From NCBI RefSeq assembly GCF_965641715.1, contig NZ_OZ282453.1: a DNA stretch of 64,000 nt, one strand, 5' to 3'. This DNA is from Escherichia coli (GTDB lineage: Bacteria > Pseudomonadota > Gammaproteobacteria > Enterobacterales > Enterobacteriaceae). Shown piece after piece: positions 9,407 through 10,075 of this stretch. Within the stretch, counting starts at the first letter, position 1; each line of letters begins with the position of its first letter. The notes under the pieces were generated by a model. The model made no database searches. It had not been told where the DNA came from and saw only the letters and a list, made by a program, of their open reading frames with translations. The position numbers and the translations under genes were made by a program.

Positions 9407-10075
9407 TGGTCAACAAAAACTGGTCACAATTTTAGATTTTTCCAGTATCTATTTTCCGATTCGTTCGGCGGTAATCCACCGATATATTCATGAGGCCGGG
9501 GTACACTACAATATTCAATAGACTGTTATTACATAGGCATCCTCGTTGAGTCTAACGTAACCAGCCACTGATATCCACTCGTACTTCAGGCTTCTGAAAA
9601 AATGTTCCATTGGGCTATTATCCCAGCAGTTTCCCCGGCGACTCATACTCTACTTGATCCGATAACACCACAGCACCTACCTGAACTGTCCGCTTGTGTA
9701 ATGGCTCCCCTGGTCGCCCTTTTAAGAGTCAAGACGTTATCGGGATGCTGTTGATTTCGTTGTAATGTATAAACTTCACGTCGCCACACCACACTTGATT
9801 TGGCTCTGTCACGGCGAACTGCCGTTCAGGGAGTCCTGACATCAAGAGCGCGGTAGCTTTTTTCCTTTAGCCTCACGTATTTCGATTTGTTCCGGAATTA
9901 TCAGGGAGGTTTTTGGTGTTTTGCCCTTACGCTCATCACGCTGTTGTTTGCCCCATCTTGTTATCGAGGAAAAGCCGACATCCATAGCTTTGGCGGCATC
10001 TGCCACAGTATTGTTCGGGGTGAACATATCCTCTGTTCAGGTGGACAAATTCAGTAAACCATTACATATGAGGCA
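9407..10075 (-). mobile_element. Internally deleted IS3-family (IS911-like) insertion-sequence remnant
   Basis: IS3-type end TGTAGTGGTCAACAAAAACTGGTCA at about 9407; orfA fragment at 9842-10027 ([33 protein letters not shown]...EQIEIRE, IS911 OrfA-like); broken orfB C-terminal pieces at about 9440-9800 (PNQVWCGDV..., [15 protein letters not shown]-like); second end-like sequence near 10030-10075. Confidence 0.7.
9842..10027 (-). pseudogene. IS911-like transposase OrfA fragment
   Basis: Helix-turn-helix segment of IS3-family OrfA; N-terminus missing and no intact orfB follows. Confidence 0.7.

Follow-up and report, generated by a model that had tools for sequence, protein, structure and literature searches.

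The closest described system to the element analyzed here is IS911, a copy-out-paste-in transposition element of the IS3 family with 36-bp inverted repeats (IRs), from which OrfA (100 aa) and, via –1 frameshifting, OrfAB (382 aa) are produced (PMC2909936; PMC1636345). The loss of copy-out-paste-in insertion sequences (ISs) has been described as deletions anchored near the IS ends, with joints at 2-4-nt microhomologies, some of which intrude into the IS (bioRxiv 10.1101/2023.06.07.543989). We analyzed a stretch of 64 000 nt from an Escherichia coli chromosome (hereafter, the window), which comprises fimE/fimB/nanC/nanM and a truncated nanS (1-8166), a composite leuX island, leuX itself (tRNA-Leu-CAA; 43310-43394, minus strand) and the sequence beyond it. 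Positions 9402-10066 (minus strand) represent a non-functional relic of an IS911-like IS of the IS3 family, and we hold this explanation, including the history of the locus proposed below, with high confidence. The relic shares with IS911 the TG…CA tips, the 36-nt IRs, the order IRL-orfA(HTH)-slippery A6G-orfB(DDE)-IRR and collinear homology in every retained block; unlike IS911, it keeps only 665 of ~1250 nt and has neither an intact open reading frame (ORF) nor a 3-nt target duplication.

The 665-nt relic has its left inverted repeat (IRL) at the higher coordinates and its right inverted repeat (IRR) at the lower ones. The outer TG tip of IRR lies at 9402 (plus strand, TGTAGTGGTCAAC) and the outer end of IRL at 10066 (plus strand, AAACCATTACA); accordingly, the minus strand read from 10066 to 9402 begins TGTAATGGTTTACTGAATTTGTCCACCTGAACAGAGG and finishes GACCAGTTTTTGTTGACCACTACA, with TG…CA tips as in the IS3 family. 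IRL (36 nt, TGTAATGGTTTACTGAATTTGTCCACCTGAACAGAG; 10031-10066, minus strand) was identical at 30 of 36 positions (83%) to IS911 1-36, and IRR (9402-9437, minus strand; plus strand, TGTAGTGGTCAACAAAAACTGGTCACAATTTTAGAT) belongs to a tip region (9402-9441) identical to the reference at 39 of 40 positions (IS911 1209-1248, 97.5%). An earlier note on this DNA had placed an internally deleted IS911-like element with IS3-type terminal sequence at 9407-10075. The element is indeed there and both of its TG/CA-tipped IRs survive, while the ends given were off by 5 and 9 nt, and four deletions were found rather than one.

For the alignments, a copy annotated as 'IS3-like element IS911 family transposase' (L002) was replaced as the reference by a 1248-nt copy with canonical IS911 IRL and OrfA (L007 1376-2623), to which the orfB C-terminal block of the relic was 85% identical, compared with 76% for L002. 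In a global alignment with the 1248-nt copy, 632 nt of the relic were aligned at 87% identity, and BLAST returned five collinear pieces (E = 1e-103, 8e-50, 3e-17, 3e-11 and 1e-10); five collinear pieces were also obtained with L002. Judged by these scores, the match to IS911-type copies is far beyond chance. The order IRL-orfA-orfB-IRR was kept collinear across the blocks, and the profiles HTH_Tnp_1, rve_3 and transpos_IS3 matched the fragments. The earlier note had let its claim depend on alignment to IS3-family elements; the relic aligned significantly, and the deletion endpoints could be mapped. The alignment to L007, the BLAST pieces and the RefSeq annotation all support the extent of the relic. 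In RefSeq, the same stretch of strain A30 is described as 'integrase core domain-containing protein, frameshifted; internal stop'; the relic is thus already known as an IS3-family/integrase-core pseudogene in near-identical genomes.

The positions of IS911 retained in the L007 alignment were 1-49, 132-~280, 325-358, 704-763 and 928-1248, and 616 of the 1248 reference positions (~49% of the IS) were without a counterpart, in four separate deletions (D1-D4). Inward from IRL on the minus strand, a 5΄ untranslated stretch (10020-10030, placed by the global alignment) is followed by D1 (IS911 50-131), by which the orfA start codon and the first ~20 codons were lost. The next block (9872-10019; IS911 132-279, 86.5% nucleotide identity) is an orfA fragment with the helix-turn-helix (HTH). 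D2 (~IS911 280-324) then precedes, and D3 (IS911 359-703, 345 nt) follows, a block identified by alignment and translation as the orfA end (KKATALLMS) with the A-AAA-AAG heptamer (9829-9871). An orfB fragment, ERQFAVTEPNQVWCGDV (9769-9828; IS911 704-763, 86.7%), covers the region of the first Asp of the DDE motif, beyond which D4 (IS911 764-927) is occupied by 51 nt that could not be aligned to IS911 (9718-9768) and represent either filler or extreme divergence. The orfB C-terminal fragment (9442-9717; IS911 928-1207, 83-92%) contains two in-frame stops and small indels, and leads to IRR. All of these blocks lie on the minus strand. Direct repeats of the reference bound D1 (CAGAAC(A/T)ACAC), D2 (AAAAAG(G)CTAC) and D3 (TGAAC); three of the four deletions therefore look as expected for slippage between 7-11-nt direct repeats.

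The slippery heptamer itself is present (…GGAAAAAAGCTACCGCG…, window ~9857-9863). However, D3 begins just downstream and has taken the N-terminal third of orfB, so that no orfB frame follows the heptamer. Intact transposase frames were absent, given that the orfA start with codons 1-20, IS911 359-703 and IS911 764-927 are gone and two in-frame stops interrupt orfB. As a result of the four deletions, the stops and the frameshifts, no transposase (orfA, orfB or OrfAB product) can be encoded by the relic. The frameshifted orfB C-terminal pieces reported previously were confirmed, with a match to NCBIfam transpos_IS3 (E = 5.5e-10, profile positions 305-339 of 369) and to Pfam rve_3 (E = 0.003). 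The statement that most of the transposase is missing was only partly borne out: about half of the IS is lost, and ~45% of the OrfAB coding sequence is still recognizable. Differences from the reference were distributed over codon positions 1/2/3 as 17/16/30, and this mild third-position excess suggests that part of the divergence predates inactivation and that much of it is neutral decay.

No function is expected of the relic. A scan of 8800-10400 against Rfam returned nothing at E ≤ 1, and a promoter/terminator scan gave no signal over shuffle expectation. We also considered the possibility that the relic has been co-opted, either through its 61-aa OrfA-derived ORF (10027..9842, minus strand) as a small DNA-binding regulator or through regulatory signals provided by the IRs. 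This ORF, which corresponds to the orfA HTH fragment of the earlier note (86% nucleotide identity to IS911 132-279), is open in all six relic-bearing genomes described below, is called a hypothetical protein in RefSeq and keeps the HTH region. However, 20 N-terminal residues and the greater part of the leucine zipper are missing from it, the 5/5/10 distribution of substitutions over codon positions in the block does not clearly indicate purifying selection, and no promoter-like site was found upstream on the minus strand. Moreover, its match to Pfam HTH_Tnp_1 (E = 0.0096) remains below the gathering score, as the ORF is a fragment. We accordingly regard co-option as extremely improbable.

Identity between the relic and copies annotated as 'IS911 family' was 78-82%. 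By ISfinder convention, ~95% nucleotide identity is required for the same IS, and since even the nearest relatives of the relic were only 78-87% identical, it is best described as IS911-like rather than as IS911, as far as nucleotide identity indicates. The nearest relative is a frameshifted chromosomal IS3-family copy that adjoins queD-dpdE in some E. coli (L007 1376-2623; L008). It was 85-87% identical to the relic in the orfB C-terminal/IRR third, compared with 76-78% for other IS911-type copies, and shares with the relic derived residues (…LNE…) in that third and a near-identical IRR. In contrast to the relic, the L007 copy is full length (1248 nt), though frameshifted, and occupies an unrelated locus. 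No closer full-length relative was found in the plasmid collection (at most 82% overall and 78% in the C-terminal block), and no IS911-like pieces carrying the missing half were found in the rest of the window. Decay in place and divergence of a distinct IS cannot be cleanly separated, the nearest relatives being decayed copies too. As a separate observation, the L007 and L008 copies (1376-2623 and ~1949-2816, respectively) lie immediately upstream of queD-dpdE, a 7-deazaguanine DNA-modification island, and copies of this type are broken by an IS110-family element in some strains.

The relic with all four deletions was found in six of 5426 complete E. coli genomes (A30, TC24, AREA_C483, 1218KP, A29 and EC2001; hereafter, type-A genomes) at 99.4-99.9% identity, with one copy in each genome at the same locus, and also in three gut-metagenome contigs. 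There is no sign of mobility of the relic. The target duplication of IS911 is reportedly 3 nt in length; no target duplication of 3 or 4 nt was present here, the plus-strand flanks being CCT and TAT. These observations bear on the possibility that the relic is a non-autonomous, MITE-like derivative that can be mobilized in trans by OrfAB of a full-length IS911. Both IRs are indeed present in the correct inverted orientation, with IRR nearly identical to the reference tip. However, IRL differs at 6 of 36 positions, a target duplication is lacking, the deletions resemble random slippage rather than a conserved miniature architecture, and the single copy occupies the same locus in all six genomes and the three metagenome contigs. 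MITEs are recognized by multiple dispersed copies with target duplications, and only one place per genome was found. This explanation is therefore very improbable.

We further compared the flanks of the relic with those of related islands. The left, 'old' flank (9105-9401, plus strand), which contains a conserved 61-aa ORF (9203-9388), is 97-98% identical to the sequence common to IS-less genomes and meets the IRR tip at CAGCCT|TG. The region of this junction was present in 944 of 5426 genomes. The window sequence from 8100 to 9406 is shared with many genomes at ~98%, and the homology ends at 9406, that is, 5 nt inside IRR. In the common configuration (797 of 5426 genomes, e.g. L003), the sequence reads …CAGCCT-TGTAG-CCTTTCAAGGG…, and the part after TGTAG is 83% homologous to window 18643-18818; the common configuration is therefore equivalent to the window with a stretch removed that begins at IS position 6 and ends 8 nt before the ATG of the P4-type integrase pseudogene described below. 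A 2-nt microhomology (TA) was observed at the common junction, as TA is also found at the other deletion endpoint; thus, only three of the five nucleotides in TGTAG are diagnostic of IS origin, with a chance expectation of ~1/64. At the same outer junction, five bovine isolates and one metagenome contig (L012) still carry 19-22 nt of the IRR tip (TGTAGTGGTCAACAAAAAC), followed by a MobQ-relaxase element. In two further sequences (L016/L017), the break is located 4-5 nt outside the IRR tip and is followed by an AbiE cassette, and this site may therefore be a boundary that has nothing to do with the IS. Altogether, the breaks of four configurations fall no more than ~25 nt from the IRR tip, and graded pieces of the tip are kept in two of the four. 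Neither a genome with an intact IS at the CAGCCT| site nor a clean empty site was found.

The comparison with related islands, as the earlier note had suggested, revealed that the two flanks of the relic are not contiguous in any relative. The right flank (10067-10245) is a non-coding segment of 177-179 nt that extends from the IRL tip to the 3΄ region of a gene encoding a 743-aa protein; it reads TATGAGGCAGTGG… and occurs together with the IS only in the six type-A genomes. A homolog with 75% identity was found in 515 O157:H7-like genomes (L009 4998-5178), where it separates a Druantia type III pair (DruH3-DruE3, with DruE3 nearer to the segment) from a second cluster encoding a DrmD-like SNF2 helicase, a type IIG-like methyltransferase, a DruE-like helicase and a UvrD-like helicase, all absent from the window. 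The homology between the window and O157 ends exactly at the IS tip, and the ATG of the DrmD-like helicase is situated only 16-17 nt further in O157; for this reason, the relic truncates what elsewhere is the leader of a downstream gene cluster. The segment may be a promoter/leader module that moves between defence cassettes, since it directly precedes the DrmD-like helicase gene in O157. It was also observed that the segment is 75% conserved between this island and the O157:H7 leuX island despite unrelated upstream genes.

The earlier note had taken the element as the mark of a past rearrangement that may have removed neighbouring genes. Both suggestions gain support here: the target duplication is missing and the left flank continues otherwise in 797 genomes, while the O157 homolog of the right flank runs into a four-gene cluster that is missing from this strain. 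A loss of neighbouring genes at the relic is thus supported by homology, but the O157 homolog is only 75% identical and has different upstream genes, and what was lost here may therefore differ from the O157 cluster.

The order of events that we infer would be as follows. A once-active element would have inserted at CAGCCT| in the leuX island, and its own activity or recombination at the IS ends would then have removed DNA on at least one side. Such a removal, as proposed, would explain why the 3-nt target duplication is missing and why the flanks are not contiguous. It would have cut off whatever came after the 177-nt segment, where O157:H7 has the four-gene helicase/methyltransferase defence cluster. 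The element would have decayed later through replication-slippage deletions between 7-11-nt direct repeats and through point substitution. In other lineages, the IS would have been lost wholly or for the most part along with adjacent cargo, and the IRR tip would have left apparent nested scars at this same outer junction: ~20 nt in five genomes and 5 nt (TGTAG) in 797 genomes. The relic today would only mark the seam between the older conserved flank and a strain-specific two-gene cassette. As in the loss of ISApl1 from Tn6330 and the IEE-stimulated excision of IS629, the joints lie at the IS tip or a few nucleotides inside or outside it (bioRxiv 10.1101/2023.06.07.543989); in contrast to those scars, kilobases of adjacent cargo are also gone here, and a role of a transposase or of IEE is not demonstrable from sequence.

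An alternative explanation is that the IS arrived as island cargo attached to the two-gene cassette, such that the flank on the IRL side is original and the junction on the IRR side was generated by an IS-mediated deletion towards the old flank, the TGTAG and 20-nt scars being later or independent, or a coincidence. When an IS mediates the deletion of neighbouring DNA, the IS itself stays and exactly one new junction arises at one of its tips; this would fit the explanation, as would the absent target duplication and the restriction of the 177-nt flank with the IS to the six type-A genomes. On the other hand, CAGCCT|TGTAG… was found with three unrelated right partners (the relic, the MobQ element and the integrase-upstream region), so that an old junction on the IRR side is the easier explanation, and comparison with the O157 homolog reveals that the flank on the IRL side has itself been cut short at the IS tip. 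We therefore consider arrival with the cassette rather unlikely. The simplest reading of the junctions would be one old insertion, of which the IRR junction persisted while deletions or replacements recurred in the DNA to its right.

A stronger version of the reading of one old insertion is that the IRR tip is a long-lived anchor of the leuX island, derived from an ancient insertion at CAGCCT|, next to which defence-type cargo was repeatedly swapped by transposase- or microhomology-driven events; this we put forward only tentatively, as a possibility that is itself somewhat doubtful. If it is true, the graded scars of 665 nt (six genomes), ~20 nt (five genomes) and 5 nt (797 genomes) would form a series, and the lineage of the window would represent the least-eroded state of a seam present in approximately one-sixth of the species. 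The relic itself is ordinary, since IS relics are routine, and it is useful as a landmark of cargo turnover at the leuX island, at which adjoining DNA was lost or swapped.

The cassette adjoining the relic consists of two overlapping genes on the minus strand, encoding proteins of 743 aa (10302-12533) and 1581 aa (12530-17275). The previously described position of the relic, immediately downstream of a candidate operon, holds, as the IS tip lies 235 nt past the stop of the 743-aa gene (10302). The label 'helicase operon', by contrast, does not hold: neither gene matched a helicase profile, and only Walker-A-like and DELH motifs were found. Searches of Pfam, PADLOC, NCBIfam and PDB sequences with the two proteins returned nothing. 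The 1581-aa protein contains a Walker-A-like DGTGFGKS motif (~residue 225) and IIDELH (541-547), and is plausibly an SF2-type ATPase; no similarity between the two proteins and the O157 helicases was detected by tblastn. Relative to the 177-nt segment, the gene pair fills the slot of Druantia III (DruH3-DruE3) in O157:H7, and it may be regarded as a candidate uncharacterized defence pair. Of the 5426 E. coli genomes, 147 carry the pair, with identities of 90-99.8%. Among these, 141 genomes contain neither the relic nor the 61-aa ORF at 9203-9388, nor an endonuclease fragment and, except for its last 48 nt, an HNH gene that lie further to the left; the absent segment spans window 8222-~10222. 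In the window, the neighbourhood 3΄ of the pair is truncated, and downstream partner genes may be missing in this strain. Analyses of the candidate pair should thus include the 141 cassette genomes that lack the relic.

The genes of the left flank are an HNH endonuclease (8174-8824), a fragment of a phosphorothioated-DNA restriction endonuclease (8904-9146) and the ORF at 9203-9388. On the far side of the gene pair, an internally deleted pseudogene of a P4-type integrase (18364-18636) retains the N-terminal 18 codons (MALSDVKVRSAKPEAKAY) and ~60 C-terminal codons. Window 18643-18818, just upstream of this pseudogene, adjoins a 14-nt partial copy of the leuX 3΄ end (TGGTGCGAAGGCCG, 18808-18821), and the region 18364-18821 marks the boundary between two tandemly accreted leuX islands. 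A distal copy of the leuX 3΄ end, as expected at an island edge, was absent near the relic, the only full match being the tRNA itself.

Several minor observations were made at these junctions. A 16-nt sequence of the old flank just outside IRR, ATGGTTTAGAGAATTT, at 9380-9395 resembles the subterminal part of IRL at 14 of 16 positions (compared with 10047-10062), which raised the possibility of an IR-targeted insertion. This was set aside because the inner end of 9380-9395, and not its tip, faces the IS; IR targeting has the geometry of an IR-IR junction, unlike the arrangement here (PMC9333248). Approximately 0.07 such IRL-like matches are expected in the region, and the resemblance is probably due to chance. 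In strain 442/2 (L017 ~3060-3080), the old flank meets the AbiE cassette precisely at an 8-nt tandem duplication, GAATTTCA; this duplication is missing from strain ET201 (L016), which also has nanS intact. In the common configuration (L003 7484-7545), part of the att core has expanded into tandem GGTGCGAA units, which precede the partial copy of the leuX 3΄ end.

The HNH endonuclease (216 aa, minus strand) had weak PADLOC matches to type IV methyl-directed restriction models (E ~1e-5) and passed the Pfam HNH threshold marginally. Position 8221/8222, 48 nt inside the 3΄ end of its gene, is a recurrent breakpoint: both LS4-type genomes, in which the cassette is joined directly, and O157:H7, in which a different transposase pseudogene comes next, diverge at 8221. 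The endonuclease fragment (window 8888-9104) matches, at 96.8% identity, the 5΄ part of the full-length O157:H7 gene for a phosphorothioated-DNA-binding restriction endonuclease (L011 36716-36932). Its neighbour there is a duplicated fragment of nanM, which may point to an old duplication or transposition involving the nan-proximal edge of the island.
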